Position numbers and translations under genes: made by a program
Source: Myxococcota bacterium
GTDB lineage: Bacteria; Myxococcota_A; UBA9160; UBA6930
Length of the DNA stretch: 64,000 nt
Direction of reading: 5' to 3'
Assembly: GCA_965223415.1 (NCBI GenBank)
Contig: OZ245002.1
Location: forward strand, 5,440,001-5,504,000
Notes under the pieces: generated by a model
Told to the model about the DNA's origin: nothing
What the model saw: only the letters and a program-made list of their open reading frames with translations
Databases searched by the model: none
In this document: piece after piece, positions 1-45,775 of the stretch
Numbering within the stretch: the first letter of the stretch is position 1
Layout: the number at the start of each line of letters is the position of its first letter

Positions 1-1
1 G

Positions 2-2058: not shown

Positions 2059-2122
2059 GCGTCCGACCCGCACTCCGGCTCCTCTTTCGAAAGCGCAGCG
2101 CAAACTGATAGGGTTCCGACCC

Positions 2123-2815: not shown

Positions 2816-2849
2816 GCTCGGACCTCCGGAAGATCCACGGCACTCCCCT

Positions 2850-3704: not shown

Positions 3705-3754
3705 GGTTTCTCCTCGGGGCAAAATGCAACTCGGCCGCACTGGGATGTTCGACA

Positions 3755-4573
3755 TCATCCGTCGTCTTCATTCCAGAACAGACGCGCCGCGTTCTGGTAG
3801 AGAAAACGATCGAGGACCCCGGGGCGAAGGTCGAGCTTTCGCGCCTCTTCGACACATCTGGGCATCTGAATGGCCGGATGGTCGGACGCGAAGATGGTCT
3901 TCTTCTGGCCACGCGTATTCATGAAATGAATCAGCTCGGGCGGGAAGTGCTTGGGAAGGTAGGCCGACGTCATCAGGTGCAACCCGGGATACTTGAGCAT
4001 CAGGCGAAACGCGACCTGCCACCACGGATCGGCGCCGTGGGCCATCACGAGCTTCAATTCTGGAAAGTGGAGGCAGACCCGATCGAGGAACATCGGGTTC
4101 TGGCATTCGCCCGGCACCTGTGGCCCGGGAATTCCGGTGTTGATCGTGATGGGCAGGTCGAGCTCGATGCACTTCGCATACACCGGGTAGTAGATGGCGT
4201 CGTTCGGTGGGATGTCGAACAAGAAGGGGGTGATGCGCGCCAGCACCACCGGGTGGTCCCGTCGGAAGGACTCGAGTGCGCGGAGTGTCTTCATCCCGCG
4301 GCGTGGGTTCAGCTGGGCGCCGAGCGAGAACCGTTCCGGGTGCTTCTCGGGAAACTTCATGACGTGCTCGGACGGCTTCGCGGGATCCGTCGTCAGGATG
4401 GCCCGCGCGACGCCGCAGCCATCCATCATGTCGAGCATCTCCTGGACTTCGTAGTTGCGGAAGAAGTCCTCGCCCTGCTTGAAGTAGTCCTTCCCTACCT
4501 GTTCCAGGTAAGCGGGCCGGCCGAACTCGGCCACGTTCACGTTCACCCAGCAGTCGATTGCGCGCGGCGCCAA
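3755..4573 (-). CDS. Amidohydrolase_2 family protein
   Basis: YYPVYAKCIELDLPI, MAHGADPW and FASDHP motifs; TTG start. Confidence 0.88.
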   Translation of the reverse strand: MAPRAIDCWVNVNVAEFGRPAYLEQVGKDYFKQGEDFFRNYEVQEMLDMMDGCGVARAILTTDPAKPSEHVMKFPEKHPERFSLGAQLNPRRGMKTLRALESFRRDHPVVLARITPFLFDIPPNDAIYYPVYAKCIELDLPITINTGIPGPQVPGECQNPMFLDRVCLHFPELKLVMAHGADPWWQVAFRLMLKYPGLHLMTSAYLPKHFPPELIHFMNTRGQKKTIFASDHPAIQMPRCVEEARKLDLRPGVLDRFLYQNAARLFWNEDDG

Positions 4574-4634
4574 GGTCTCTTCCTCCGGAAGGGTGGGCGG
4601 CCGCGAGGCAGCCTATCATATTTGAGATCTTTTT

Positions 4635-4663
4635 CTGTAAATCATTCTCTAAATGATCTACAG
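4635..4663. promoter_or_regulatory. Palindromic operator candidate in a divergent promoter region
   Basis: CTGTAAATCATT-CTCTA-AATGATCTACAG, 12-bp arms with 1 mismatch, in an AT-rich intergenic patch. Confidence 0.6.
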
Positions 4664-4719
4664 TAGGTCCCACGGCCGAGCTTCGGCTCACCGCAACCGC
4701 CGATGGGAGCCTGCAGCGC

Positions 4720-5907
4720 ATGAAGTTCGGAATCTTCTACGAGCACCAGCTGCCCCGGCCGTGGACGGACGATGCCGAGCATCGGCTGATGAAGGACTCG
4801 CTCGCCCAGTGCGAGCTCGCGGACAAGCTCGGGTACGACTACGCGTGGGAAGTCGAGCACCACTTTCTCGAGGAGTACTCCCACTCCTCGGCGCCCGAGG
4901 TCTTCCTCGCCGCCGCGAGCCAGCGCACCGAGCGGATCCGGCTGGCGCACGGAATCATCCAGCTGACGACGAACCACCCGGCGCGAGTGGCCGAGCGAGT
5001 CTCCACACTCGACCTCGTCAGCGACGGGCGCGTGGAGCTCGGGATCGGTGAGGGTTCGACGTCGACCGAGCTGCACCCGTTCGATCGGCGATTCCGCGAC
5101 AAGCGGCCGGTCTGGGAGGACGCCGTTCGGGCGCTCATCCCGATGTTCACGGAGCCGGTCGCCGAGTATCACGGAACCCACTTCGACTTCCCGCCGCGCA
5201 ACGTCTTGCCGAAGCCGTTGCAGAAGCCGCATCCGCCCTTGTGGGTGGCGTGTTCCCAGCTCGAGACGATCCAGATGGCGGGGATGCGCGGCATGGGCGC
5301 GTTGGGCTTCCAGTTCGCCTCGGCCGACACCGCGACGAAGTGGGTCCATGCCTACTACGACGCCTACCTGAATCAGCTGGACAAGCTCGCGGACTACCAG
5401 ACGAACCCGAACATCGCCGTCGTCTCCGGCTTCATGTGCGCCGAGACCGACGAAGAGGCCCTGCGAAAGGCCGATGGTTGGACCTTCTTCCAGTTCGCGC
5501 TCCGGTACTACGGGAGCAAGGGCGTGCTTCCCCCCGGAGAAGTCTCGCTCTGGGAGGAGTACGAGAAGTGGCGGGCGACGCCGGAGGGCCAGAAGCAGAG
5601 CCGCACCGGGCTGATCGGCTCGCCCGACACACTGCGGCGTCGTCTCCGCAAGTTCGAGCAGTCGAACGTGGACCAGGTCATCCTGCTCAATCAGGCTGGC
5701 AAGAATACGCACGAGGACATCTGTTCGAGCCTCGAGTTGTTCGCGCGCGAAGTGATGCCGGAGTTCCACGGTCGCGACCCGGAACACCAGGAATGGAAGC
5801 GCGCGGTCCTCAACCGGGAGCTCGTACTCGACCGTCCGGACACGACGCAGCCCGAGGACACCACCGCTCTCTTCAAGCCGACGCAGCCACCGTCCTCGGG
5901 GGCGTGA
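4720..5907 (+). CDS. Luciferase-like (LLM) flavin-dependent oxidoreductase
   Basis: MKFGIFYEHQLPRPW, VEHHFLEEYSHSSAPE and PKPLQKPHPPLW motifs. Confidence 0.92.
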   Translation: MKFGIFYEHQLPRPWTDDAEHRLMKDSLAQCELADKLGYDYAWEVEHHFLEEYSHSSAPEVFLAAASQRTERIRLAHGIIQLTTNHPARVAERVSTLDLVSDGRVELGIGEGSTSTELHPFDRRFRDKRPVWEDAVRALIPMFTEPVAEYHGTHFDFPPRNVLPKPLQKPHPPLWVACSQLETIQMAGMRGMGALGFQFASADTATKWVHAYYDAYLNQLDKLADYQTNPNIAVVSGFMCAETDEEALRKADGWTFFQFALRYYGSKGVLPPGEVSLWEEYEKWRATPEGQKQSRTGLIGSPDTLRRRLRKFEQSNVDQVILLNQAGKNTHEDICSSLELFAREVMPEFHGRDPEHQEWKRAVLNRELVLDRPDTTQPEDTTALFKPTQPPSSGA

Positions 5908-5980
5908 GGTTCATCGGGCCGGCGGATGTCGGCCCTTCACGGGCTTCGGCCCTGCACTCGACTCCATCTGGAGGCACACG

Positions 5981-7738
<1,758 letters not shown>

Positions 7739-7879
7739 TGGACGCGAGGGCCGACCCGGGGCTCACGATCTGAAGGCGAGGTCGCCCTCCGCTCGGTGGC
7801 CGACACGGCGGAGCTGGGGCCGGGAACACTGGAGATCTCCCGTGGTTGCGCCACCGTCGGAACGGCGAGGAGGACCCAC

Positions 7880-9646
7880 ATGGCTTGGCTCGACGAACTC
7901 ACTGCGATCGGACGTCTAGTAGGGAGCGCTCGACGTGCGCTGCCCAAATCGAACTGGACCATGACGCGGCTGCTCGAGGAGCGCGCACACCGGGCGCCCG
8001 GCGATCTTGCCCTCGCGTACCTCGATCGTCGGTATACCTGGGGCGAGATCGACCAGCACGCGAATCGCTGGGCCCACGTGTTCCTGGACGAGGGCATCGA
8101 GCCCGGCGACATCGTGGCGCTGATCATGGACAACCGACCGGAGTACCTCTTCGCGGTCCATGGCCTCGCGAAGGTCGGTGCGGCGGCGGCGCTGATCAAC
8201 ACGAATCTCACGGGTCAGTCCCTCGTCCACGCGATCACCGTGGGGAACTCGCGCAAGGTCGTCGCCGGCGACGAGCACGCGGCCGCCGTCGAAGAGGTGA
8301 TCGCGGAGCTCGAGACCCTCGACGACGAGCACCCGGTCCTGCTCCACGTGGAGGACGCGACGCAGCCGCGACCCGGTGGGGGCGTGCCGCTCAACGAGGC
8401 GCTGCAGTCGGCCCAGGCGTCGAAGCCGCAGGTCGCAGTCGAGGCCGACTCCGAGATCCTCTTCTGCTTCATCTACACGTCCGGGACGACGGGGCTGCCG
8501 AAGGCTGCGGTCGTCTCGCACCGGCGCGCGATGATCGGGGGGCTCGGCGCTGCGCACCTCATGATGCGGCTCGAGCCGGGTGACGTGAGCTACGTGGCCC
8601 TGCCGCTCTATCACTCGAGCGCGATGTTCATCGGCTGGAGCGCCGTGCTGAACTCCGGCGCTGCGATGGCGTTGCGGCGCAAGTTCTCGGTCACGCATTT
8701 CTGGGACGACGTGCGTCGCTTCGGCGCCACGCACTCCGTCTACATCGGCGAGCTGTGTCGCTACCTCCTGAACGGGGAGCCCGGTCCGGGCGATCGCGAC
8801 CACGACCTGCGTTGCGTAATGGGCAACGGACTGCGACCGGACATCTGGAACGAGTTCCAGGAGCGCTTCGGGATCCCGGAGATCCGCGAGTTCTATGGCG
8901 CCACCGAAGGCACGGCGGGGCTCATGAATCGCACGGGCAAGCCGGGCATGGTGGGCAAGATCGGCTTCGGCATGAAGCTGGTCACCTGCAACCAGGAGAC
9001 CGGCGAGCCGATTCGCGGCGCCGACGGTTTCTGTACCCCGGTCGACCCGGGGCAGATCGGCCTGCTGCTGGGACCGATCTCGAAGGCGACCTCGTTCGAC
9101 GGCTACGTCGACCGGGAGGCCTCGCAGAAGAAGATCCTGACGGACGTGTTCAAGAGCGGCGATCGCTTCTTCAACACGGGGGACCTGTTGCAACTCCACG
9201 AGGGCAAGTGGCTCTCGTTCGCGGATCGGGTGGGGGACACCTTCCGCTGGAAGGGCGAGAACGTCTCGACCAACGAGGTCGCGGAGGTCTGCAACGGAGC
9301 GCCGGGTGTGCTCGAGACCAACGTCTACGGCGTTCAGGTTCCGGGCGCAGACGGCCGGGCCGGCATGGCGGCGATCGACACGGACGAGGGCTTCGACCTC
9401 GAGGCGTTCGCCGGGTTCGTGAAGTCGGCGCTTCCCGGCTACCAGCGTCCGCTCTTCGTGCGCCTGCTGGGCGGCGAGATGCAGACCACCGGCACCTTCA
9501 AGCACCAGAAGGTGCGATACCGCAACGAGGCGTTCGATCCCGGCCAGTGCGAGGACCCGCTCTACTACTTCGATGGCGAGTCGTATCGGCCCATCGACGC
9601 CGCGGTCTTCGACGCCATCGGCAAAGGCGAGATCCGGGTGGGCTAG
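7880..9646 (+). CDS. Long-chain acyl-CoA synthetase (FATP/FadD6-like)
   Basis: YTSGTTGLPK, FYGATEG and DRVGDTFRWKGENVST motifs; GAGGAGGA RBS. Confidence 0.92.
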   Translation: MAWLDELTAIGRLVGSARRALPKSNWTMTRLLEERAHRAPGDLALAYLDRRYTWGEIDQHANRWAHVFLDEGIEPGDIVALIMDNRPEYLFAVHGLAKVGAAAALINTNLTGQSLVHAITVGNSRKVVAGDEHAAAVEEVIAELETLDDEHPVLLHVEDATQPRPGGGVPLNEALQSAQASKPQVAVEADSEILFCFIYTSGTTGLPKAAVVSHRRAMIGGLGAAHLMMRLEPGDVSYVALPLYHSSAMFIGWSAVLNSGAAMALRRKFSVTHFWDDVRRFGATHSVYIGELCRYLLNGEPGPGDRDHDLRCVMGNGLRPDIWNEFQERFGIPEIREFYGATEGTAGLMNRTGKPGMVGKIGFGMKLVTCNQETGEPIRGADGFCTPVDPGQIGLLLGPISKATSFDGYVDREASQKKILTDVFKSGDRFFNTGDLLQLHEGKWLSFADRVGDTFRWKGENVSTNEVAEVCNGAPGVLETNVYGVQVPGADGRAGMAAIDTDEGFDLEAFAGFVKSALPGYQRPLFVRLLGGEMQTTGTFKHQKVRYRNEAFDPGQCEDPLYYFDGESYRPIDAAVFDAIGKGEIRVG

Positions 9647-9804
9647 GCGCTCCGAGCTTCCTCGGCTGGGTGCTTAACTGCGCAGTGCCGTCACTGCTGG
9701 CTGGCCTGGAACGGCAACGCATCGAGTCGCTTCGCATCTAATGCTGAGCCCCAGGTGCGTTGCCTGAGGCTCGATGCTGCCGTGCGGTAAGTGCGCGAGT
9801 TCGC

Positions 9805-9859
9805 TGGCACGCCGGGAGGGATTCGAACCCCCGACCCCCAGGTTCGAAGCCTGGTGCTC
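9805..9859 (-). pseudogene. 3' remnant of tRNA-Arg(TCG), att-like scar
   Basis: Minus strand GAGCACCAGGCTTCGAACCTGGGGGTCGGGGGTTCGAATCCCTCCCGGCGTGCCA: anticodon arm, T-arm and CCA present; 5' acceptor strand and D-loop absent. Confidence 0.85.
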
Positions 9860-10051
9860 GATGTCGAACCACCGGACAACGCAGTTCGAAGAGCCGCGCG
9901 CATCCAGCGTTCAGCGGCCCGGAACCAGGCGCTCGCCGCGACAACCAAGCACGACCAAAACGCGAAATCAGACACCGCCAGAACGCGAATTCCTCAGCGA
10001 ATCCGGCGACTTGTGGCGGGGCGGACGGGACTCGAACCTACAACCTCCGGC
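9855..10051. repeat. ~197-bp direct repeat, copy A (spacer plus tRNA-Asp 3' end)
   Basis: Ungapped match to 16543-16739; about 32 mismatches by hand count (~84%). Confidence 0.9.
10014..10051 (-). pseudogene. Degenerate 3' duplicate of tRNA-Asp (attR-like)
   Basis: Matches the 3' 38 nt of the tRNA-Asp at 16702-16739 with 3 mismatches. Confidence 0.85.
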
Positions 10052-10091
10052 CGTAACTCCGCGGAAACGCAGGGGTCCGGATCGGTGAAGC

Positions 10092-10110
10092 TTGTATCCC
10101 GTTGTATCCC
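10092..10110. repeat. Tandem TTGTATCCC x2, candidate integrase arm-type sites
   Basis: TTGTATCCC-G-TTGTATCCC with a 10-bp period, ~40 bp from the tRNA-Asp fragment. Confidence 0.5.
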
Positions 10111-10303
10111 AACCTCTCCGGGACCCCCCGCTGCCCCGAGCGCAGTGGGGTTTGGCGGGACCCAGTCAACCAGGTGCGACCAGTTCGAACCGGACTTCGC
10201 GCGAAGAGGACGCGGGAATCGAACCCGGGCTCAAGGGACGCAAGCGCCGGAAAGGAGTGGCGTCGATCTCTCGTATCGTCACTCACCACCCGTGAGGCGT
10301 GCA

Positions 10304-11383
10304 TCATTCGCCCGCCGCGGCGGACTGAAGCCGCGCCCGTCGACGGATCTCCGAAGGCGCGCATTGCGCCCAGCGCTTGAACGCCTTGCGGAAATTCGAG
10401 GCGTCCTCGAACCCGACCCGTCGCCCGATCTCGTCCACGGGAATGCGCGTGTTCTCCAGATACTCGACCGCCACCGACAAGCGTGTTTCATCGACGAGCT
10501 GCTGGAAGCGAAGCCCGTCGTCGCGAAGACGCCGGTAGAACGTCCGGAGGGATAGACCGAGGTTCTTGGCGATCTCAGGTGCGGTCGAAGCATACCCCTG
10601 GCGCGCGAGGCAGAGCCTTCGAACGTCCCGAGCAAGTCTCGTTTCCCCGACGCCGCTCGACACGATGCGTTCGCAGAAGTCCTGACACACGCGTGCGGTG
10701 GCATCGCTCGCCTCGGGACAGGGCCGTTCCAGAACGGCCGCATCGAAGTGCCACTCCATCACATCGCTGGCGAAATGGATCGGACATCGGAGCGCGTCGC
10801 GGTACGCCGCTGCGTGGGCAGGCGCTTCGTACGGGAAGTACATCGCGCTCGAGGGGAAAGGCGCCCCGACCACGTAGCCGAGTAGCGTCGACATCGAGCT
10901 TCGCCAGAACTCGGCCACGAATGGGAGCGCACTGCCCAGCGAGTGCGCATCGTGGGAGCGCAAGACGCCCACGTCGCCCTGCAGCTCGAAGGTGATGCGC
11001 AGGACGGGACCGGCGAGCTCCAGGTGCTCGAGACCGAACTCGAACGCTTCGCCGACGGTACGACTCGTCAACAGCGCATAGCCGAAGAGGCCGAAGTCGC
11101 TGATGCGCTGCCGCGCGCCGGCCCGCAGGGCCGTGTCAGGCCGTCGTGCGAGGCGCTCGGCGCTTCGCAGCAGCGCAACTCGCCGACCATGATCGATCGG
11201 GTGCTCGGAACTCAACGCGTCGCCCAATGTGACGCCCGACGCGGAAGTCCATGCTCGGTGATCGATGCCCTGCTCGGCGAGCTCGCGGCCGAGCGCGTCG
11301 AGTCCGAAGCCGAGGGAGGCTCCGGACGAGAGGTCAACGGGGACTTCCGGACGTTCTCGTTGAATGGGCAGCTGGGAGGGCAC
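10304..11383 (-). CDS. AraC-family transcriptional regulator (arabinose-binding-like N-domain)
   Basis: FGLFGYALLTS, SLRTFYRRL and VGFEDASNFRKAFKRW motifs; start uncertain. Confidence 0.9.
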   Translation of the reverse strand: MPSQLPIQRERPEVPVDLSSGASLGFGLDALGRELAEQGIDHRAWTSASGVTLGDALSSEHPIDHGRRVALLRSAERLARRPDTALRAGARQRISDFGLFGYALLTSRTVGEAFEFGLEHLELAGPVLRITFELQGDVGVLRSHDAHSLGSALPFVAEFWRSSMSTLLGYVVGAPFPSSAMYFPYEAPAHAAAYRDALRCPIHFASDVMEWHFDAAVLERPCPEASDATARVCQDFCERIVSSGVGETRLARDVRRLCLARQGYASTAPEIAKNLGLSLRTFYRRLRDDGLRFQQLVDETRLSVAVEYLENTRIPVDEIGRRVGFEDASNFRKAFKRWAQCAPSEIRRRARLQSAAAGE

Positions 11384-11427
11384 CGGCCGACGTTCCTCGC
11401 TATTCGCTCGAGCCTTCGAGCCTAGGA

Positions 11428-11463
11428 TGGCACGATTTCACTCGATGATTGGCAGGATATCAC
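11428..11463 (+). promoter_or_regulatory. Tandem direct repeat, probable AraC-family binding site
   Basis: TGGCACGATTTCAC / TGGCAGGATATCAC (12/14 identical, 22-bp period) between the AraC gene and the divergent operon. Confidence 0.6.
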
Positions 11464-11521
11464 CTCACAGTCGGTGGCGCTGTCGCAGATACTCCTGGTG
11501 CCCGTCGAGCAGGAGTCCCCG

Positions 11522-12940
11522 ATGACGACCCAGCCCCCCATCGAAGCCCTGTCCCAACGACTCCGATCCCAACGCGCCGCCTTCGCCGCGGAGCCGTACC
11601 CGACGCTGGCTCGGCGGCGCGAGTGGATCGATCGCATCCTCGACATGACCGCCCGCTACCAGCACGAGATCGTCGAGGCGGCACACGTGGATTTCGGGGG
11701 CCGCGCGCCGGCCGAGACGACCATGGTCGAGGTCTTCGGAACGACCGCCAACGCGCGCAACACAAAACGCCGCCTGAAGAAGTGGATGCGCGCTCGCCGG
11801 ATGCCCACCGCGCCGCCCTTCCGGCCCGGCTACAACCGTCTCATGGCGCAGCCCGTAGGCGTCGTCGGTGTGATCGCGCCGTGGAACCTCGCCTACAACC
11901 TCTCGATGGGGCCGGCGATCGCAGCGTTTGCCGCGGGGAACCGTGTCATGTTGAAGCCAAGCGAGATCACGCCGGCCAGTGCCGAGCTGATCCGTCGCAT
12001 GGTCGGCGAGAACTTCGACCCCGACGAGTTCGACGTCTTCCCGGGTGGTCCGGAGCTGGCTGCTGCCTTCTCGGAGCTTCCCTTCGACCATCTCCTCTAC
12101 ACGGGATCGACGTCGATCGGTCGGCGCGTGGCCGAGGCCGCCGCGCGCAACCTCACGCCGGTCACGCTCGAGCTCGGCGGCAAGAGCCCCGTCATCATCG
12201 ACGACTCCGCGGACTTCAAGCGAGCGGCACGGCGCATCGCGTTCGCCAAGCTCCTCAATGGCGGCCAGATCTGCATCGCCCCCGACTACGCGCTCGTGCC
12301 GCGTTCACGGCGTGACGAGTTCGCCCAGGCGGTCATCGCGGAGGCGTGTGACCTCTACCCCGACGCCACTACGAACGACGACTACTGCTCGATCGTGTCC
12401 GACCGGCATCATGAGCGCCTGCTCGGGCTGTTGTCGGAGGCGAGAGCCGCTGGCACCGAGGTGTTGAACGTGGCGCGCATCGAAGAGAGCCACGATCGCC
12501 GGATCCCCATGCAGATCCTGCTCGACCCGGACGAGAAGCTCGGCGTCATGAAGGAGGAGATCTTCGGGCCGCTCCTGCCCGTCGTCTCCTACGAAACGCC
12601 CGATGAGGCCATCCGCTACGTGAACGAACGGCCGCGCCCCCTCGCGCTCTACTGGTTCGGCCAGGATCAGAAGCGTCGAGAAGAGGTGCTCCACCAGACG
12701 ATTAGCGGTGGCGTCACGATCAACGACGCGATCTGGCACTTCGCCCAGGAGGACCAACCCTTCGGCGGTGTCGGCGAGAGCGGCATGGGCGCCTATCACG
12801 GCGAGGCGGGCTTCCGCACCTTCTCGAAGGAGAAACCCGTCTACCACTCGGCGGCGTGGCCGTACTCGATGGCGATGTTCCAACCGCCCTATTCCGACCG
12901 CACCCTGAAGCTACTGGAATTCCTGCGGCGGATCGTTTGA
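11522..12940 (+). CDS. Aldehyde dehydrogenase (coniferyl-aldehyde DH-like)
   Basis: TLELGGKSP, NGGQICIAPDY, EEIFGP and PFGGVGESGMGAYHG motifs; AGGAG RBS. Confidence 0.92.
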   Translation: MTTQPPIEALSQRLRSQRAAFAAEPYPTLARRREWIDRILDMTARYQHEIVEAAHVDFGGRAPAETTMVEVFGTTANARNTKRRLKKWMRARRMPTAPPFRPGYNRLMAQPVGVVGVIAPWNLAYNLSMGPAIAAFAAGNRVMLKPSEITPASAELIRRMVGENFDPDEFDVFPGGPELAAAFSELPFDHLLYTGSTSIGRRVAEAAARNLTPVTLELGGKSPVIIDDSADFKRAARRIAFAKLLNGGQICIAPDYALVPRSRRDEFAQAVIAEACDLYPDATTNDDYCSIVSDRHHERLLGLLSEARAAGTEVLNVARIEESHDRRIPMQILLDPDEKLGVMKEEIFGPLLPVVSYETPDEAIRYVNERPRPLALYWFGQDQKRREEVLHQTISGGVTINDAIWHFAQEDQPFGGVGESGMGAYHGEAGFRTFSKEKPVYHSAAWPYSMAMFQPPYSDRTLKLLEFLRRIV

Positions 12941-12983
12941 CCGCGAATCCACCGACCCAATCCGACTCACAAGGAGAGAACCC

Positions 12984-13763
12984 ATGTCAGAAGAGACCTC
13001 CGTGAGCTACGAGCAGGACGGCCCGCTGGGCATCCTGACGATGCACCACGCCCCGCACAATCTGCTGGGTCCTCCCTTGATGAAGGGCGTGCGCGACGCG
13101 CTGGCCACCGCAGAGAAGGAAGGTGCGAGAGCGGTCCTCCTCAAGAGCGGCTTGCGGCATTTCTCGGCGGGCGCCGACATCGCGCTCTTCGAAGGCGCCA
13201 TGGACGGAGGCGGCGGACTCGAGCTCTCGCCTGTCAACTTCCTGAAGGTGCTCGAGGCGTTCCCGCTGCCGATGGTGGCAGCCGTGCACGGCGTCTGTGT
13301 CGGCGGCGGTCTGGAGCCCGCCCTCACGTGCGACTTCATCATCGCCGCGCGCTCTTCGAAGATCGGATCGGTCGAGGCCACGATCGGGCTCAATCCGCTC
13401 ATGGGCGCGATCCAACGGCAGGTCCAGCGGGCCGGGGCGCTCCGCGCCAAGGAGATGTCGATGCTCGGCCGGCGCTATGACGCCGAGACCCTCGAACGCT
13501 GGAATCTCGTGAACCGCGTGGTCGACGACGAGAACCTCGAAGCGGCCGCCCACGCCGTGGCGATGGAACTCGCCAACGGTCCGACGGTCGCACACCGCAT
13601 CACGAAGGAGCTCGCGCGCATTGCGGAAGACGAAGGCGTTGCAGCGGCGGACGCGGTGATGGAGGAGAAGCAGAAGGCGCTCTGGTCGTCCGAGGATCTG
13701 AAGATCGGCCTCGAATCGCTCATGAAGAACGGTCCGGGCCTCGCCCGCTTCGAGGGGAGGTAA
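12984..13763 (+). CDS. Enoyl-CoA hydratase/isomerase family
   Basis: FSAGADI and AAVHGVCVGGGLE motifs. Confidence 0.9.
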   Translation: MSEETSVSYEQDGPLGILTMHHAPHNLLGPPLMKGVRDALATAEKEGARAVLLKSGLRHFSAGADIALFEGAMDGGGGLELSPVNFLKVLEAFPLPMVAAVHGVCVGGGLEPALTCDFIIAARSSKIGSVEATIGLNPLMGAIQRQVQRAGALRAKEMSMLGRRYDAETLERWNLVNRVVDDENLEAAAHAVAMELANGPTVAHRITKELARIAEDEGVAAADAVMEEKQKALWSSEDLKIGLESLMKNGPGLARFEGR

Positions 13764-13766
13764 ACC

Positions 13767-15089
13767 ATGTCGGGACCTCTCGAAGGACTCAAGGTCGTCG
13801 ATTTTTCGCGCGTATTGGCCGGTCCGCTCTGCGCGCGCACGCTGCAGGACCTCGGCGCGGAGGTGCTCAAGATCGAGCCGCCGCGTGCAGACGTCTCCCG
13901 CTTCTCGGCTCCGATCAATCCCAACGGCATGTCGGGCTACTACGCCCAACAGAACGCCGGCAAGCGGAACATCTCGATCGATCTCAATCGGCCGGAGGCG
14001 CGGGAGATCGCGCTCAAGCTATGTGACGAAGCGGACGTACTCGTCGAGAATTTCCGGCCGGGGGCACTCGGTGCATTCGGGCTCGACTACGCGACGCTCG
14101 CCGAGCGTAATCCGCGACTCATCTACGTCTCGATCTCGGGCTACGGGCAAGGCGGTCCCTTCAAGGGGCGCATGGCCTACGCGCCGACCGTTCAGGCCGA
14201 GGCGGGCTTCACCCATCACTCCCTTCGCCACTTCGGGGAGAATCTCCAGGCGCCCCAGACCGACGCCCTCTCCCACGCCGACGTCTACGCCGGCTTGCAG
14301 GGGGTGATCGCGGTGCTCGCCGCCGTCCGCCAGAGGGAGACGACGGGGACCGGGCAGCACATCGACGTGGCGATGGCGGCAACGGTGATCGCGATCAACG
14401 AGCGCGCGCACGTCGATCTCAACGGGCTCGAGCTCGAGGACGAGCCCGCGATCCTCGGCGCGACCGATGGCTCGTTCTTCACGGGACCGGGTGGCGAGCC
14501 GTTCATCTCCGCGATCAGCATCGTCGGAACGATCACCTTCCGCTTCTTCATGGCGGCGATGCGCCGACCCGACCTCGCCCTCGACCCGCGCTTCGCAACA
14601 CCCGGCGCGCGCCGGGCGAACCTCGAATCCCTGAAAGACGTGATCCAGTCGTGGATCTACTCCTTCCCCGACATGGCCTCCCTCGACGCTCAGCTCGACG
14701 AAGCGAAGATCGCGATCGGAGAGATCCGACCGCTCCAAGAAGTGGCCGAGTCCGAGTGGGCCGACTACTGGACTGCGACCCACGAGGTCTCGGACCGCAA
14801 CGGCGGCTCGTTTCGGCTACCGGGCCGACCGTGGAGGTTCTCGGGCGCGGAACTCTCTCCGCCCGGCGAGCCAGCGCTCCAGGGCGAGCACAACGCTCAG
14901 GTCTGCTCCGAGCTCGGACTCGACGATGCCGCAGTCAAGGAACTCGAAGAAGCGGGCGTACTGGTCGGAAACTTCGCAGCGCGAATGATCGAGAGCGTCG
15001 AGCAGAGTGTCGCGGCCGATCTCGCGCGGATCAACGCGGCACCCGAAGTGGCCGATTCGTCGGAAGGCGCGGGAGATCGACCTGAATGA
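13767..15089 (+). CDS. CaiB/BaiF class III CoA-transferase
   Basis: PLEGLKVVDFSRVLAGP, NAGKR, ENFRPG and SISGYGQ motifs. Confidence 0.92.
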   Translation: MSGPLEGLKVVDFSRVLAGPLCARTLQDLGAEVLKIEPPRADVSRFSAPINPNGMSGYYAQQNAGKRNISIDLNRPEAREIALKLCDEADVLVENFRPGALGAFGLDYATLAERNPRLIYVSISGYGQGGPFKGRMAYAPTVQAEAGFTHHSLRHFGENLQAPQTDALSHADVYAGLQGVIAVLAAVRQRETTGTGQHIDVAMAATVIAINERAHVDLNGLELEDEPAILGATDGSFFTGPGGEPFISAISIVGTITFRFFMAAMRRPDLALDPRFATPGARRANLESLKDVIQSWIYSFPDMASLDAQLDEAKIAIGEIRPLQEVAESEWADYWTATHEVSDRNGGSFRLPGRPWRFSGAELSPPGEPALQGEHNAQVCSELGLDDAAVKELEEAGVLVGNFAARMIESVEQSVAADLARINAAPEVADSSEGAGDRPE

Positions 15090-16351
15090 CGACGGTCGAC
15101 GAGACCCACGACCCGCAGCTCCGGAGCTGGGTCACGAGCGCGAACGATCCCGACTCGGACTTTCCGATCCAGAATCTCCCGTTCGGCATCTATCGATCGC
15201 GCGACGCCGGATCGCAATGGCGGGGCGGTGTGGCAATCGGCGACCAGGTCTTCGACCTGGCCGCCGTCGACGCGGAGACCGGCCCGACCTTGAACCCACT
15301 GGCTGCTGCCGGTCGATCGACCTGGCGAGACTTGCGCCAGAGGCTCTCGCACGCGCTTTCCGATCGGGGCCACTCCGCGAAGCTCGAGCGATACCTGACT
15401 TCCCTTTCGGACGTCGAGCTCGGTCTCCCCGTCGCCGTCGGCGACTACACCGACTTCTACAGCTCGTATTTCCATGCGTATCACGCAGGGCAGCTCTTTC
15501 GTCCCGATGATCCGCTCACGCCGAACTTCAAGTGGATTCCCATCGGCTACCACGGCCGGTCCTCGTCGATCGTGCCGAGCGGAGCTCCCGTCTACCGGCC
15601 GTCGGGGCAACAGTCGCCCGAAGGCGAGGGCCCGCCGATGTTCGGCCCCTCGAAGGCACTGGACTACGAGGTCGAGCTCGGACTCGTCGTCGGCCCGGGG
15701 AACGAGCGCGGCAATGCGATCCCCATCGATCGTGCGGAGGACCATCTCTTCGGTGTCGTTCTTCTGAATGACTGGTCCGCGCGCGACGTTCAGGCCTGGG
15801 AGTATCAACCGCTCGGCCCCTTCCTCTCGAAAAGCTTCGCGACGACACTATCGCCTTGGGTCGTCACCCTCGAGGCGCTCGCGCCGTTTCGCGCCCCCGC
15901 CTTCGCGCGTTCGCAGGGGGATCCGGAGCCGCTGCCCTACCTGACCGATTCGCGCAACGAAAAGCGGGGCCACTTCGACATCCAGGTCGAGGCGTGGATC
16001 AGGACGGCGGACGCGACCCGGCCGTATCGCCTGTCTCATAGCTCGTATGCGACGAGCTATTGGACAGCCGCGCAGCTCATCACGCACCACACCTCCAACG
16101 GCTGCCCTCTCGAGCCAGGTGATCTCCTGGGAACCGGAACCGTGTCAGGACCGAACCCGGAAGAGGCAGGGACGTTGCTCGAGCTGTCGAAAGCCGGCGC
16201 ATCGCCAGTAGTGCTGCCCGACGGTGCCAAGCGCGGATTCCTCGAGGATGGTGATGAGCTCGTGCTGCGCGCAGGCTGCAATGCGGAAGGCTACCGAGGA
16301 ATCGGGTTCGGTGAGGCAACCGGAACGGTGGCTGCCACGGTCGATTCTTGA
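15086..16351 (+). CDS. fahA: Fumarylacetoacetase
   Basis: DFPIQNLPFG, DYTDFY, GYHGRSSS, LDYEVE and NDWSARDVQAWEYQPLGPFLSKSF motifs. Confidence 0.92.
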   Translation: MTTVDETHDPQLRSWVTSANDPDSDFPIQNLPFGIYRSRDAGSQWRGGVAIGDQVFDLAAVDAETGPTLNPLAAAGRSTWRDLRQRLSHALSDRGHSAKLERYLTSLSDVELGLPVAVGDYTDFYSSYFHAYHAGQLFRPDDPLTPNFKWIPIGYHGRSSSIVPSGAPVYRPSGQQSPEGEGPPMFGPSKALDYEVELGLVVGPGNERGNAIPIDRAEDHLFGVVLLNDWSARDVQAWEYQPLGPFLSKSFATTLSPWVVTLEALAPFRAPAFARSQGDPEPLPYLTDSRNEKRGHFDIQVEAWIRTADATRPYRLSHSSYATSYWTAAQLITHHTSNGCPLEPGDLLGTGTVSGPNPEEAGTLLELSKAGASPVVLPDGAKRGFLEDGDELVLRAGCNAEGYRGIGFGEATGTVAATVDS

Positions 16352-16542
16352 ATCGAACTGCAGCGGTCGAGACCCCTGGCACCGATTTCTCACCGCAGAT
16401 CAACGCATTGCTCCGCCAGCGAGCTCTCGCGAGTGTGCGGAGACACCGCGAGAGCTGCAGCCTATCCGACGGTTCGGTTGCGCCGGAGCCTCCGGGCAGG
16501 CGATCCCAGGTCCGATCGACCAGGCGGACCCAGACCCCCAGA

Positions 16543-16739
16543 TGCTCGATGTCGAACGGCCGGACAACACAGTTCGGACAGACGCGCGCATCCAGGCGTC
16601 AGGACTCCGAGATCGGGCGCTCGCCGCGACAACCAAGCGCAGCCAAAGCCCCGAACCAAGCACCGCCAGAACGCGAATTCCTCAGCGAATCCAGCGGCTT
16701 GTGGCGGGGCGGACGGGACTCGAACCCGCAACTTCCGGC
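16543..16739. repeat. ~197-bp direct repeat, copy B
   Basis: Matches 9855-10051; includes the 3' half of the intact tRNA-Asp. Confidence 0.9.
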
Positions 16740-16778
16740 GTGACAGGCCGGTGCTCTAACCAATTGAACTACCGCCCC
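16702..16778 (-). tRNA. tRNA-Asp(GTC)
   Basis: GGGGCGGTAGTTCAATTGGTTAGAGCACCGGCCTGTCACGCCGGAAGTTGCGGGTTCGAGTCCCGTCCGCCCCGCCA; full cloverleaf with CCA. Confidence 0.97.
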
Positions 16779-16817
16779 GCGGCGGGCTCAGGAAGTAGCT
16801 GATCGGCCCTTGGGGCG

Positions 16818-17792
16818 CTAGCGATCGGGCGCCTTCGAGGCGGGAGTCGCGGTCTCGCGGGCCTCGGCGCGGGCGGCCTGGCGCGCCGCGCGGCGGTCGG
16901 CGCGGATCGCGTCCTTGGGGAAGCGCCAGGTGAGGCTCCCCTCCGTCGCGTCGGCCACCGCCCGGATCTCCGCCACCTCGTCCGGGAGCTTCTCCGCGCG
17001 CCGACCGCTGCGCAGCTTGTGGGCGACGCGACGCACGGCGTCCTGGAGGAGCAGCCACTCCACGTAGCCGGGCTCGATCCAGTCGGGATCCGCCTCGGTG
17101 GCGTAGCCCTCGAAGTAGGCCTCCAGGGTGTCCGAGTCGTTGGCCGTCTTGAGCAGGGTGGCCAGGGAGCAGCCGCGCGGTGCGAGACCGATGGCCTCTT
17201 CGTCCACGTAGCGGAGGTCGTCGTCGTCGGGCCTCCACATGAAGTTGTCCTTGTGGACGTCGTCGATCTCGAGCTCCACGGGCAGGCCGTGGCGGAGGGC
17301 GTGGCGCAGGGCCTTGCGGAGCACCCGGCCCACGCTGCGGCCCGGGAGCCCGGCGCGGGTCGCGACCGTGGCGAGGTCCGCGACGAAGCGGCCGAGGGCC
17401 GTGAGCGAGGCGAGCCATCGCGGGGGCGTGGGCATCGCGTCGTGCGGGGCGCGGCCCATCGTGTGGAGGCGTGCCGCGAGGCTTCCGACGCGGCCGGCCT
17501 GGGCGAGCAGCTCGTGGCGGGTGAGGGGCCGGTGGTCGGCGAGCAGGTCGAGGAGCAAGAAGCGGCCGTTTCGCGCGACGAAGGGTGGGAAGAGCCAGGG
17601 CAGCCCGCGCACCAGGGCCTCGATCTCTCTCGCGCGGCGCTCACCGGCGCAGGCGCGCAGCTTGTAGGCGCGGCCCGCCCCGTCGGTCACGCGGAAGGCG
17701 GTGCCGCTGTGGGCGCCCTCCCCGCCCAGGCCTTCCAGCGCGACGAGCCGGCGCTCCGGCTCGAAGGGCCGCTCCTCGAGGATCGGATGCAT
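16818..17792 (-). CDS. Aminoglycoside/choline-kinase-like phosphotransferase
   Basis: AYKLR, AARLH, DDVHKDNF (DxxxxN) and YVDEE motifs; start MHPILEE. Confidence 0.7.
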   Translation of the reverse strand: MHPILEERPFEPERRLVALEGLGGEGAHSGTAFRVTDGAGRAYKLRACAGERRAREIEALVRGLPWLFPPFVARNGRFLLLDLLADHRPLTRHELLAQAGRVGSLAARLHTMGRAPHDAMPTPPRWLASLTALGRFVADLATVATRAGLPGRSVGRVLRKALRHALRHGLPVELEIDDVHKDNFMWRPDDDDLRYVDEEAIGLAPRGCSLATLLKTANDSDTLEAYFEGYATEADPDWIEPGYVEWLLLQDAVRRVAHKLRSGRRAEKLPDEVAEIRAVADATEGSLTWRFPKDAIRADRRAARQAARAEARETATPASKAPDR

Positions 17793-17809
17793 GGCGCGGC
17801 GGCGGAGCG

Positions 17810-18481
17810 CTAGGCGCCGCTCCCGCTCCCACCCTGCTGCTGTTGCTGCTGGGCGACCTGCATCTGGATCGCCTGCATCTGCATCATCAGCGTCATGTCG
17901 CCCTCGACCTGGATCTTGCCGGACATGAAGGCGGTCATCGGATCGAGCTCGCCGCTCTCCATGGCGGCGGCGTCCTCGCCGGTGATCCGCACCGTGGTCG
18001 TTGCCTCGTCGGGGATCGGGCCCTGGCCGAGGCAGAAGCCCACGCTCCAGGCCTCGTCGGCGGCGACCACCATGCGGATCAGGCCCGAGAGCTGCTGCAT
18101 CTCCGCCAGGGCCTGGGGCGTGGGCGCACCGCCCAGCCCCGGGGCGCCGTCGCCGGCCTGCTTGAGCGCGTCGGGCCGGAAGAAGAGCGAGGCGCCCTTG
18201 CCGATCGCCCCGCCGCGGCCCTCCCACAGGGCGCCCTGCCAGTCCGCCACGCTCTGGACGTAGGTGAAGGCGGCCTCGTCCCGCGAGCTGGCCTCGATCG
18301 TGACCTGCCCCCCGGCCACGTGGACCACCCACTCGCCCCCGCCCTCTCCTTCGAGCCGAACCCCGAGCTTCACGTCCACCTCGTCGGCCCCGGGCATGGG
18401 ACCGGCCTCGGCGAAGGCCTTCGGCAGCCATTCCTCCAGGAAGGCGGCCGGGGCGAGGGGGGCGTCGGGAAAGGCGGGCAT
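17810..18481 (-). CDS. SCP2 sterol/lipid-carrier domain protein (probably tandem SCP2)
   Basis: LEGEGGGEWVVHV and ELDPMTAFMSGKIQVEGDM motifs; poly-Q tail. Confidence 0.8.
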   Translation of the reverse strand: MPAFPDAPLAPAAFLEEWLPKAFAEAGPMPGADEVDVKLGVRLEGEGGGEWVVHVAGGQVTIEASSRDEAAFTYVQSVADWQGALWEGRGGAIGKGASLFFRPDALKQAGDGAPGLGGAPTPQALAEMQQLSGLIRMVVAADEAWSVGFCLGQGPIPDEATTTVRITGEDAAAMESGELDPMTAFMSGKIQVEGDMTLMMQMQAIQMQVAQQQQQQGGSGSGA

Positions 18482-18555
18482 GAGACCTCCTGGGAGCCCG
18501 CAGTGTAACGACCCCCCTGCGGGTCCGGGCGCGGCGCGCGCCGTGCGCTAGAAAC

Positions 18556-19800
18556 ATGCGGATGCTCGCCATCCTCCGCCGTGCAGCCCGGCGCCGTCAC
18601 GAGCGGCGGAACGAGCGGGTGCGCAGCGCCGATGCCCTCGAGCAGCTCGGACGCTACGGCGAAGCGCGAGCCGTCTACGCCGAGGCGTTGGAGCGGGAGC
18701 CGGCCCACGCCGGCGCCCTGCGGCGACTCGCCGCGCTCTCGCAGCTCGAGGATCGCATCGACGAGGCCGAGGATCTCTGGCGACGGCTCCTGGCCGAGCG
18801 ACCCGAACGGGCCGACGCCTGCCATGAGCTCGCCCGCCTGCGTCTTCGGGCGGGCGATCCCGAGGAGGCGCTGCGGCTCGCCACCCGCGCCGCCGAGCTG
18901 GCCCCGCCCGGCAAGCCCCATGCCCTGGCGCACCGGGCCAAGAACCTGCGCGATCACCTGGCGCGGGGCGAGGTGCCCCTGGCCGCCCGCCACCTGGCCA
19001 TCGCGGGCATGTCGTTCTGCGGCTCGACCCTGCTCGGCTACCTGCTCGGGAGCCGGCCGGACGCGGCGAACGTCGGCGAGTCCCACGCGCTGGTCTACCG
19101 CCGCCAGGGCATGCGACCGATTCCCGTCGACTACGCGAGCGACGAGCCAGAGGGCATGATCCGCTGCACGCTCTGCGGAGAGGGCGAGTGCCCGATCTGG
19201 ACCGTGCCGTTCCGGCGCACCCTCGCCGCCGACCCGATCGATTGGTACGGCAAGCTGGCGGTCCAGGCCGGCGCACCAATCCTCGTCTCCTCGGACAAGA
19301 GCCACGCCAAGCTCTCCGGGCTCGATCCCTTCAGCCGGCACGACGTGGTGATCCTGTTCAAGACGCCCTCGGTGCACTTCGCGTCGGCGCGGCTCCGGCC
19401 CCGGCCGCCGAAGGACCCGCAGCTCTACATGACCCGCTGGGAGCGCGAGTACGCTCGCCTGCTCCACGACCTGCCGGTGAAGGGCCGCAAGATCGTGCTG
19501 CACTTCGACGCCTTCCGGCGAGCGCCGGAGGTGCACCTGCGCCGGCTGCTCGAGCGACTCGACCTGCCCGTCTCGGATACGACGGACCCGCTCGAGGTCG
19601 ACCCGGCCCAGCACGTGATCGGCGGCAACCCGTACACCCGCCAGGACGTCCGTGAGGAAGGGCGACGGCTCGGGATCCGCACCGGCGACGTGCACGAGCT
19701 GCCGGACGAGGCGGGGCGGGCGATCGCCGAGCGCCAGGAGCGCAGCACGGTCTTCGCCGAGCTCCAGGAGCGACACGCCGAGAGCTTCGACGGATGCTGA
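18556..19800 (+). CDS. TPR-repeat plus sulfotransferase-fold protein
   Basis: N-terminal TPRs; AGMSFCGSTLL...NVGE, CTLCGEGECPIW, VSSDKS and HVIGGNP motifs. Confidence 0.75.
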   Translation: MRMLAILRRAARRRHERRNERVRSADALEQLGRYGEARAVYAEALEREPAHAGALRRLAALSQLEDRIDEAEDLWRRLLAERPERADACHELARLRLRAGDPEEALRLATRAAELAPPGKPHALAHRAKNLRDHLARGEVPLAARHLAIAGMSFCGSTLLGYLLGSRPDAANVGESHALVYRRQGMRPIPVDYASDEPEGMIRCTLCGEGECPIWTVPFRRTLAADPIDWYGKLAVQAGAPILVSSDKSHAKLSGLDPFSRHDVVILFKTPSVHFASARLRPRPPKDPQLYMTRWEREYARLLHDLPVKGRKIVLHFDAFRRAPEVHLRRLLERLDLPVSDTTDPLEVDPAQHVIGGNPYTRQDVREEGRRLGIRTGDVHELPDEAGRAIAERQERSTVFAELQERHAESFDGC

Positions 19801-20999
19801 AGAGGATCGCGCGGCGCCTGTCGGCGCGGCGGGTCCGCCAGGCGGAAGCCGCCCACGAGGCGCTGCACCTGCCGGAGGAGCGCGAGGCCTGGGAGGCGGT
19901 GCTGCGCACCCGGGCCGACCATCCCCGCGCGCTCCGGCGGGCGGCGGAGCTGGCCGCGCTTTGCGGCGATGCGGGCCGCGCGCGCGAGCTGTGGGAGCGG
20001 GCGCGGGACGTCCCCGACCTCGCCCTGCGCGCCCACGGCGAGCTCGCGCGCCGCACCTTCGAGGCCGGGGAGACCGAGCAGGCGCGCGCCCACGCCGACC
20101 GCTTCCTCGCCGAGAGCGAGCCCGAGCCCCGCGCCTTCAGCCTGCGGCGGCAGGTCGAGAGCCTGCGCGCCCACCTCGAATGCGACCCGGAGCGCAGCGA
20201 CGTCCGCCACGTCTGCGTCACCGGCGTCGCCTTCAGCGGGAGCACGCTGCTCGCGAACCTGCTCGGAGGCCAGCCGGGCCTCTCGAACATCGGCGAGAGC
20301 CACTGGCTCATCCACCGCCGGGTCGAGCGGGAGAGCTACGACATCGACTTCGACGCGGACCGGGAGGCGGCGGTCTTCCACTGCAACGGCTGCGGCCCGA
20401 CCTGCCCGCTGTGGACCTGGGAAGCACGCCGTGCCCTCTCCGAGGACCGGCGCGACTGGTTCCACCGCATCGGGCTCGCGCTCGGCACCCCCGTCCTGGT
20501 CTCCTCGGACAAGAACCAGCTCAAGCACCTGACCCAGGACCCGTGGCTGCGCTTCGATGCCCTCGTGCTGTTCCGGCACCCCCGCCACGCCTGGCACTCG
20601 GCGGTGCGGCCCGGACGCAAGTGGCGCGAGGTCGTCCCCTACCTAAAGCGGTGGGAGGAGCACTACCGGCGCCTGGCCTTCGACCTGCCCAACCGGGGCC
20701 GCAAGCTCTTCCTCGACCTGGATCGCTTTCGCGAGGACCCGGATCGCCACCTGGCACGGCTCGCGAGCCTGCTCGCCTTCCCCGATGCGGGAGCCGCCGG
20801 CGCGTCGCAGGCGGACCACTCCATCGGCGGCAACGCGCCGGTCGTGGCGGCCTTCCAGCGAGAAGGAGAGCCGGCCGTCGTCTCCCAGGAGAGCGCCGAG
20901 CTCACCGACGAGGAGGAGGCCCTCACTGAGCGCTTCGCGCGGGAGTCGGAGCTCTACGCCCACCTGGGCGCGCGCCATGCCGAGGCCTTCGGTCCGTGA
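19794..20999 (+). CDS. TPR-repeat plus sulfotransferase-fold protein (paralog)
   Basis: TGVAFSGSTLL...NIGE, CNGCGPTCPLW, VSSDKN and HSIGGNA motifs. Confidence 0.75.
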   Translation: MLKRIARRLSARRVRQAEAAHEALHLPEEREAWEAVLRTRADHPRALRRAAELAALCGDAGRARELWERARDVPDLALRAHGELARRTFEAGETEQARAHADRFLAESEPEPRAFSLRRQVESLRAHLECDPERSDVRHVCVTGVAFSGSTLLANLLGGQPGLSNIGESHWLIHRRVERESYDIDFDADREAAVFHCNGCGPTCPLWTWEARRALSEDRRDWFHRIGLALGTPVLVSSDKNQLKHLTQDPWLRFDALVLFRHPRHAWHSAVRPGRKWREVVPYLKRWEEHYRRLAFDLPNRGRKLFLDLDRFREDPDRHLARLASLLAFPDAGAAGASQADHSIGGNAPVVAAFQREGEPAVVSQESAELTDEEEALTERFARESELYAHLGARHAEAFGP

Positions 21000-45701: not shown

Positions 45702-45775
45702 GGGCGCGTAGCTCAGTTGGCTAGAGCACCTGCCTTACAAGCAGGGGGTCCCCCGTTCGAGTCGGGGCGCGCCCA
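45702..45775 (+). tRNA. tRNA-Val(TAC), CCA not encoded at this copy (attL)
   Basis: GGGCGCGTAGCTCAGTTGGCTAGAGCACCTGCCTTACAAGCAGGGGGTCCCCCGTTCGAGTCGGGGCGCGCCCA followed by GGGG. Confidence 0.95.

Follow-up and report, generated by a model that had tools for sequence, protein, structure and literature searches.

In the genome of an uncultured bacterium of the Myxococcota, the sole tRNA-Asp gene is followed by copies of a unit in which the ends of two different tRNAs are joined by a spacer of 154 bp. The window considered here is a stretch of 64,000 nucleotides (positions 5,440,001 to 5,504,000 of contig OZ245002.1) from this 5.83-Mb genome and contains two copies of the unit. Unless given as genome positions, coordinates refer to the window. 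The intact tRNA-Asp(GTC) gene occupies positions 16702-16778 on the minus strand (ARAGORN; Rfam tRNA model, 70.8 bits) and forms the head of an array, in the position of an attL-type site. The flank upstream of the gene, encoding an SCP2 protein and its neighbours, is syntenic with that of two relatives, G001 of the same genus and G035 from a different family of the order, which identifies the locus as one and the same in all three.

The repeated unit and its family

A single direct repeat of 202 nt connects positions 9850-10051 (copy A) with 16538-16739 (copy B). The copies lie 6688 nt apart and are 83% identical without a gap. On the minus strand both read tRNA-Asp 3' end, 154-bp spacer, tRNA-Arg(TCG)-like sequence. 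The Asp part of copy A is a 38-nt core fragment (10014-10051, minus strand), 92% identical to the gene over its length and exactly identical in its last 25 nt; gene and displaced 3' fragment lie on one strand, an arrangement by which tRNA-anchored islands are recognised under the Islander criteria (PMC4383910). The spacer of copy A (9860-10013, minus strand), delimited by BLAST and between-genome alignments, is 81% identical over 154 nt to that of copy B (16548-16701, minus strand), which was aligned with 14 other copies as well; both are right (P') arms of the kind called type 1 below. In copy A the Arg part consists of the 3'-terminal 55 nt of tRNA-Arg(TCG) (9805-9859, minus strand), which we read as the attL of an Arg-type module. 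The corresponding sequence of copy B is a decayed mimic (16520-16547, minus strand), reading GAGCATCTGGGGGTCT from 16547 to 16532 on the minus strand; alignments of the copies place a deletion of about 20 nt in its anticodon arm, with the anticodon loop and the 3' half of the stem gone relative to copy A.

An initial annotation of this DNA, made from its letters only, had described a tRNA-Asp gene, a spacer of about 154 bp, a decayed Arg remnant and a second unit some 6.7 kb away, and every element of this anatomy is borne out. The identity of about 84% over 197 gapless bp estimated there agrees with a BLAST search of the whole genome (83.8% over 197 nt, E 1.6e-55, far beyond chance), and for the conserved blocks of 22 and 32 bp the alignment gives an invariant block of 32 nt common to both copies, GGATTCGCTGAGGAATTCGCGTTCTGGCGGTG, and a second one of about 23 nt. 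The clean 55-nt Arg end, CCA included, matches at 55 of 55 positions the only intact tRNA-Arg(TCG) gene of the genome, which we located at genome 1217012-1217088. The regulator-plus-operon module predicted between the copies consists, according to Pfam, of an AraC regulator and four plus-strand genes.

These two copies belong to a family. In addition to the gene itself, genome-wide BLAST detects 11 fragments of the tRNA-Asp 3' end, and the spacer occurs 8 times; all share one orientation and fall within two arrays at 5.392-5.457 Mb, of which the window contains the head, and at 4.913-4.929 Mb. In an alignment of 13 junctions, every Asp fragment proves to be preceded by a conserved left arm, which contains a pair of GGGATACA repeats spaced at about 10 nt as well as a stretch able to form a hairpin. 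In the window this left (P) arm (10052-10207, minus strand; 13-copy alignment) carries GGGATACA at 10093-10100 and 10103-10110, the hairpin stretch and, on the opposite strand, a conserved TGA, and its segment 10123-10207 has an 89% match in G035 (contig C17). The genome contains 48 GGGATACA sites, 20 of them in the 89 kb of the arrays versus 28 in the other 5.74 Mb; 19 of the 20 are on the tRNA strand, and most are paired about 10 nt apart. The Asp cores measure 25-38 nt. Since perfect identity to the tRNA gene is confined to the last 25 nt, crossover is expected there. Three types of right arm follow the core: type 1 comprises the spacer and the Arg mimic, while types 2 and 3 have GGGATACA pairs and no 154-bp spacer. 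With its left arm, core and right arm, each junction looks like an attP site, a layout that tandem integration into one tRNA gene would yield; the type-1 right arm is a candidate for a full attP arm. On the opposite strand the left arms contain an open tail of 24 codons, which ends in a stop at one constant position in 23 of 42 Asp-core sites; an integrase frame that ran across attP in the circular form would be expected to leave such a trace. The adaptor proposed in the initial annotation thus survives as a reused unit with two tRNA parts, but it is only part of a larger attP-like junction, and other right arms lack the spacer.

The second array (genome 4908000-4931000) contains 5 Asp fragments and 4 spacer copies and no tRNA-Asp gene. 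Compared with the first, its cassettes are 78-85% identical and its insertion sequence (IS) copies 99.8-100% identical. At the inner end of the left arm in the window lies a T-loop-like remnant, CCCGGGTTCGATTCCCGCG (10208-10240, minus strand). A third tRNA identity was considered for it and dropped, the match being a generic T-loop match of 13-16 nt to many tRNAs.

Of 193 genomes from this Myxococcota order, 9 contain the spacer; they represent 4 families, and the spacer is found on 4 metagenome contigs as well. As 4 candidates were scored per genome, copy numbers are minima, and most of the relatives are fragmented metagenome-assembled genomes (MAGs); all inference here is from sequence. Copy A, spacer and Arg part together, shares 94, 95 and 90% identity with three G035 copies and no more than 86% with the others in its own genome, while the neighbours of the three closest copies are an AMP-binding enzyme here, an aminotransferase gene on G035 contig C62 and vapBC on G035 contig C97. 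Copies that are closer across families than within a genome, with changing cargo, argue against duplication in situ and point to units that would move horizontally together with varying cargo. The reuse postulated initially is thus supported, and the opposite possibility raised with it, of two copies only and an invariant cargo, fails on a family of copies with differing contents. A 5-kb contig assigned to a Spirochaetales bin (L048) carries one further unit, in which the spacer matches copy A at 94% and the Arg part at 98% identity; either mis-binning or transfer outside the phylum would account for it. A viral parent was sought in IMG/VR: a unit-specific pattern gave 0 matches, and a pattern of paired GGGATACA gave 45, none with an Asp core in the flanks fetched and most at 33-58% G+C, which we attribute to chance.

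Use of the Arg mimic, cargo and integrases

Homology between occupied units stops exactly at the Arg CCA. Beyond it follow differing sequences, all opening with ATTYCGCG-like repeats about 11 nt apart, as does the DNA after the real tRNA-Arg. Additional Arg fragments inside Asp arrays are preceded by left arms of three families, a (attcccg repeats), b (tgcaccctattgcac repeats) and c, and arms of families b and c also precede Arg fragments in the genuine tRNA-Arg arrays of five relatives (G004, G005, G009, G018 and G033). The 55-nt Arg end of copy A pairs with an attR 12.7 kb away that consists of a family-b left arm and an Arg core split by an IS110 element (genome 5435556/5437041-5437111); the catabolic genes at 1-9804 are therefore cargo of an Arg-type module. 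Likewise, for a 55-nt Arg end at genome 5419347 the partner is a family-a site at 5416915. The mimic at genome 5419393 is followed by 686 nt that share 99.7% identity with the sequence behind the attR of a 39.7-kb island at the real tRNA-Arg. An empty site is found on contig C97 of G035, where the order is unit, vapBC, left arm and Asp core. The occupied counterpart is a homologous cassette on contig C287 of G001 (80-87% identity on both sides) with 2.14 kb inserted exactly at the Arg core; the insert is flanked by direct repeats of the Arg core, and a third core splits it into two small modules. The Arg 3' end is complete up to CCA in 7 of the 25 units examined and partial in the rest. As far as such comparisons of sequence go, the matched attL/attR pairs, the 686-nt match and the empty/occupied pair show that the Arg mimic is a used insertion site and bear out the suggestion that it receives Arg(TCG)-type modules. 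The idea that the DNA after the 55-nt Arg end is an ancestral tRNA-Arg flank was rejected, as the flanks of 6 relatives map by blastn to 1.197-1.200 Mb and not to the window.

Two observations concern other occupants of tRNA-Arg sequences. The island at the real tRNA-Arg(TCG) gene (genome 1217012-1256842) has an integrase at 1217204-1217749, a 53-nt direct repeat at 1256790-1256842 and a low codon-usage score, and a further 21-nt Arg fragment lies at 1265313. An IS110-family element of 1486 bp with a 391-aa DEDD transposase occurs in four copies, 99.9-100% identical, at genome 4911545-4913030, 4921096-4922586, 4929071-4930557 and 5435556-5437041, the last 3-4.4 kb left of the window start. In four contexts all copies sit at one position of the tRNA-Arg(TCG)-like core, between CAGGCTTCGAACCTG and GGGTCGGGGG, which points to an element that may be targeted to the Arg attachment core by sequence guidance.

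The mimic also poses a practical annotation problem, as tRNA finders take it for a tRNA-Arg gene. ARAGORN calls tRNA-Arg(tcg) genes at 9809-9878 and at genome 5419351-5419420, and Rfam scores the window mimic (9812-9875) at 36.9 bits against a gathering score of 29 bits, aligning positions 4-67 of the model only. By hand count, 4 of 7 acceptor pairs form in 9809-9878, and where a D arm is expected there is a 5-bp hairpin. The stretch is a tRNA fragment fused to non-tRNA sequence and does not have the structure of a functional tRNA-Arg. Automatic annotation would list three tRNA-Arg(TCG) genes in a genome that has one.

Genes were called with a home-made codon-usage predictor, and the 94 proteins of both arrays were scanned against Pfam. 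Between the two copies of the unit, module 1 carries cargo on both strands (10307-16351): the AraC regulator (10307-11383, minus strand), followed on the plus strand by an aldehyde dehydrogenase (11474-12940), an enoyl-CoA hydratase (12984-13763), a family III CoA-transferase (13767-15089) and a protein of the fumarylacetoacetate-hydrolase family (15086-16351). The Arg-type module beyond copy A, delimited by its matched Arg sites, is about 12.7 kb long and runs 3 kb past the left end of the window; in its window part (1-9804) Pfam identifies an acyl-CoA dehydrogenase, a TetR regulator, two hydrolases, a luciferase-like monooxygenase, an amidohydrolase and an AMP-binding enzyme. The cargo varies, as the earlier proposal had anticipated. 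In 40 relatives the 6.4 kb of module 1 have no colinear match (the best is 833 nt at 70%), nor have the adjoining 9.8 kb, which give just single-gene matches of at most 82% on scattered contigs. Both arrays contain catabolic sets with TetR or AraC regulators, together with many toxin-antitoxin-like pairs (VapBC, PIN, HigA-like, Phd/Doc, and a helix-turn-helix protein with a 171-aa DUF6036 nucleotidyltransferase). Small cassettes of 0.9-1.3 kb that retain both arms are frequent. Where cassettes of about 1-1.2 kb separate units, in this genome, G035, G001 and metagenome contigs, their contents are limited to toxin-antitoxin-like pairs (VapBC, Phd/Doc, HigA-like, DUF6036 nucleotidyltransferase). 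The 171-aa DUF6036 nucleotidyltransferase, which is weakly AbiEii-like, is the sole gene of cassettes of about 1.2 kb beside type-1 units in this genome (5416381-5416896 and 4920561-4921076), in G035 and on two metagenome contigs (sites L027:324-836, L112:1068-1580 and L113:3070-3582).

No integrase accompanies these modules. None of the 11 genome matches of a six-frame PF00589 search falls inside either array, so that the description of the modules as integrase-less holds, and the Pfam scan of the 94 array proteins finds no integrase catalytic domain, although the Islander criteria ask for an integrase in each island of a tandem array. The sole trace is a 173-aa N-terminal fragment (Arm-DNA-bind_3) cut by an IS21 element at genome 4908270, on the edge of the second array. 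In three relatives, by comparison, an integrase adjoins tRNA-Asp (G001:C534, G035:C17 and G022:C25). In G001 (L021:3886-5262) and G035 (L025:5259-6662) the reading frame crosses the attachment core and continues into the tRNA gene, its C-terminal residues being ...LWRGGRDSN; the G022 frame stops short of the gene. These head integrases abut or overlap the tRNA gene and are weak PF00589 matches only (E 7e-7 to 8e-13). In G001, the element that carries the integrase has GGGATACA pairs in its right arm and is therefore the likely cognate type for the arms described here. The array on G035 contig C17 extends over about 57 kb with a single PF00589 match, the head integrase; the 40 kb examined for Asp cores contain at least 8 more of them. 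Arrays at tRNA-Arg look similar: G022:C14 has 6 Arg fragments beyond the gene and one PF00589 match, at the head, and G009:C107, G018:C5 and G021:C5 have several fragments each and no match.

The first 40 nt or so of the spacer have their counterpart, in relatives with an integrase, in the core-proximal stretch that adjoins the integrase frame at its 3' end or lies within that end. The initial annotation had considered that the whole spacer might be an integrase 3' tail. This fails: in tblastn, the matches of three Asp integrases are confined to the tRNA overlap and, in a different frame, to 58 nt of spacer B; the rest gives no match, and beyond those first 40 nt there is no similarity to an integrase. 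The layout of an integrase gene overlapping a tRNA recurs elsewhere in the window, at the head of another island, where tRNA-Val(TAC) (45702-45775, plus strand) is overlapped by the 3' end of an integrase open reading frame (45713-46651, minus strand; PF00589 match at genome 5485941-5486462).

Origin of the array

We consider it probable, from these alignments and site pairings, that the repeated unit is the junction between integrase-less modules which were integrated site-specifically, accreted downstream of tRNA-Asp and became nested with Arg-type modules. Incoming modules would insert at tRNA-Asp and displace older ones outward, which amounts to tandem accretion. A secondary attachment site would arrive with the type-1 right arm, whose end imitates the anticodon and T arms of tRNA-Arg(TCG). 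Modules targeting tRNA-Arg(TCG) would insert in this mimic, leaving a clean Arg 3' end (attL) and, farther away, an Arg fragment with an Arg-type left arm (attR), and two integrase specificities would thereby build one nested array. Modules of about 1 kb are too small for autonomy; they would never have been autonomous, and integrases would have to be supplied to them in trans. In relatives this function may fall to the gene beside tRNA-Asp whose frame enters the tRNA gene. The present genome appears to have lost it, and the array is therefore probably frozen, while insertion sequences wear it down. From this arrangement we infer mobilisation in trans, the order of integration events and any selective value of the Arg mimic. 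As for the initial suggestion that modules of Asp- and Arg-targeting integrases stack up here in trans, the two specificities stand, with Arg modules lodged in the mimic, while action in trans is a presumption in a genome that has no cognate Asp integrase.

Several facts weigh against this explanation. The arrays are packed with IS21, IS3 and IS110 copies, as in a decaying region, and no relaxase, conjugation, secretion or replication family occurs among their 94 proteins according to Pfam. The genome contains no orthologue of the Asp integrase, its best matches being paralogues of 35-44% identity at other loci. The type-1 right arm is devoid of the GGGATACA repeats of types 2 and 3. Module 1 cannot be assigned to the Arg type by its boundaries, since its Arg mimic is deleted and its right boundary is the generic T-loop-like remnant. 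The clean empty/occupied pair is a single one, on short MAG contigs where repeats can misassemble. Finally, public reads did not supply a recombination product. Part of the stretch is contained in 22 runs, and when the contigs of 4 of these were compared with window positions 5000-20000, they yielded neither a circle nor a deletion junction that could be trusted. They break within the repeats (9833-9872, 10002-10085 and 16682-16753), with joint flanks of 20-36 nt and odd partners, an outcome that by itself favours neither side.

Many of these facts would suit a passive stack of fossils, in which modules lost their own integrases by decay and the mimic is the scar of an old Arg-type insertion, carried along with the right arm and without a role, later insertions being opportunistic or due to homologous recombination. 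The heavy IS load, the Arm-DNA-bind_3 remnant at genome 4908270 and rve fragments, the missing Asp integrase and the deletion of the mimic in copy B all fit, and decayed elements in tandem with others are the usual case according to the available text of a review (PMC5704250). Nevertheless, we regard this account as rather unlikely. Cassettes of 0.9-1.3 kb that have both arms cannot house an integrase gene of 1.2-1.4 kb in addition to cargo; the pseudo-5' part of the mimic is near-invariant over two families while the surrounding spacer varies by 10-25%; and one tRNA-Asp and four tRNA-Arg arrays have either no PF00589 match or one at the head, where independent decay predicts otherwise.

A more ambitious version of the accretion hypothesis makes the locus a tRNA-anchored cassette platform, a functional counterpart of the integron that relies on tyrosine integrases directed at tRNA genes. 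Minimal landing-pad cassettes, about 0.45-1.2 kb long and each composed of left arm, Asp core and right arm and often of one toxin-antitoxin pair, would be inserted and shuffled by the single head integrase whose gene overlaps tRNA-Asp. The mimic would be carried deliberately to recruit the cargo of a second integrase, so that two recombinases might cooperate on one array of catabolic and defence-like genes. We hold this possibility to be doubtful.

That the unit is kept for a product seems very improbable. Copy A does have an open frame of 104 codons on the plus strand (9774-10088), which extends from the Arg part through spacer and Asp core into the left arm, and variable columns of the spacer are slightly in excess at its third codon position, with 32/52 versus 21/51 and 20/51 at the others (chi-square ~6.3, p ~0.04, hand calculation). 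Yet 8 of 15 copies have in-frame stops at most 72 codons upstream of the core, the spacer copies differ by indels of 11, 13 and 20 nt, and the translated sequence is of low complexity. A tRNA-like RNA, to which the Rfam score above the gathering threshold might point, is at odds with the few acceptor pairs and the abnormal D arm, and the sequencing runs found include none recorded as RNA. Segmental duplication in situ or unequal homologous recombination of the tRNA-Asp flank, with no site-specific recombination, is hardly credible: it explains direct repeats of the same orientation, but not the unrelated cargo between copies, the identities of at most 86% within the genome versus up to 95% between families, the patchy distribution over 4 families or the coincidence of the repeat boundaries with the edges of the tRNA core.

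Comparison with known systems

The initial annotation had called the array integron-like. Chromosomal integrons consist of many small cassettes at a repeated recombination site, with frequent toxin-antitoxin cassettes and at most one integrase at the head, and their repeated site can be the target of IS110-family elements, namely the IS1111-attC group. The present arrays resemble them in layout, in the toxin-antitoxin cassettes, in having at most one integrase at the head and in an IS110-family element residing in the repeated site. The layout is where the comparison holds. In contrast to integrons, the arrays of this genome have no IntI-type integrase and no attI, the PF00589 search of the genome gives no array-adjacent integrase, and the repeats are direct repeats of tRNA 3' ends with arms, where integrons have folded attC hairpins; moreover, many modules have their own regulators and genes in both orientations.

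Phage Mx8, from the same host phylum, integrates at tRNA-Asp. The sources available to us in part describe that its integrase frame extends across the attachment core, so that integration alters the 3' end of the gene, and that there are two neighbouring attB sites (PMC6070905, PMC4383910). The integrase frames of G001 and G035 cross the core in the same manner. Unlike Mx8, the modules described here have no phage genes, and the Asp integrase of G001 has no match at E 1e-5 in a tblastn search of 50,697 phage records, and hence no such relationship to Mx8 IntP.

Tandem arrays and a secondary attachment site are also known from the integrative mobilisable island SGI1 (PMC2297512, in the portion available). 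SGI1 has its own integrase there and its secondary site is chromosomal, whereas the site discussed here sits within the arm of another element. The tycheposons of Prochlorococcus are similar in growth pattern: in the accessible part of their description, tRNA-anchored islands grow by successive integration, older elements are pushed inward and partial tRNAs are strewn through variable cargo, while each element has its own integrase and often replication genes (bioRxiv 10.1101/2020.12.28.424599). A conserved junction unit of 300 nt and a mimic of a second tRNA are not described in that part of the text. In the Islander survey, which required an integrase per island, 4 tandems of three or more were recorded among 3919 islands, as far as the portion at hand goes (PMC4383910).

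Tandem islands at tRNA genes are thus well known; long arrays of integrase-less modules are much less so. What appears new is a junction unit that links two tRNA specificities, by which one element family supplies the landing site for another; a word search of the literature, which cannot prove absence from print, found no junction unit embedding the target of a second integrase specificity. If true, such docking would explain how catabolic operons build up at one locus without visible conjugative machinery. Island finders that demand an integrase or a single tRNA identity would miss such arrays or split them wrongly. Should mobilisation in trans prove true as well, the system would offer two orthogonal integrase/att pairs with natural docking, in a phylum that is hard to engineer.

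A close precedent is provided by the cis-mobilisable elements (CIMEs) and the tandem accretion described for the streptococcal ICESt1/ICESt3 family, a concept reviewed in PMC5704250, of which part was available. Like CIMEs, the modules are flanked by att sites, lack integration and transfer genes (Pfam, 94 proteins), lie in tandem at the 3' end of the target gene and are separated by chimeric internal att junctions, each with both arms and cores, and in both cases the integrase of a neighbour is the proposed mobiliser. They differ in number and size, with at least 7-8 modules per array and many of about 1 kb, in the lack of conjugation genes among the 94 array proteins, and in being known from uncultured Myxococcota through their DNA alone. 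In addition, the junction itself here bears a second, different tRNA-derived site.

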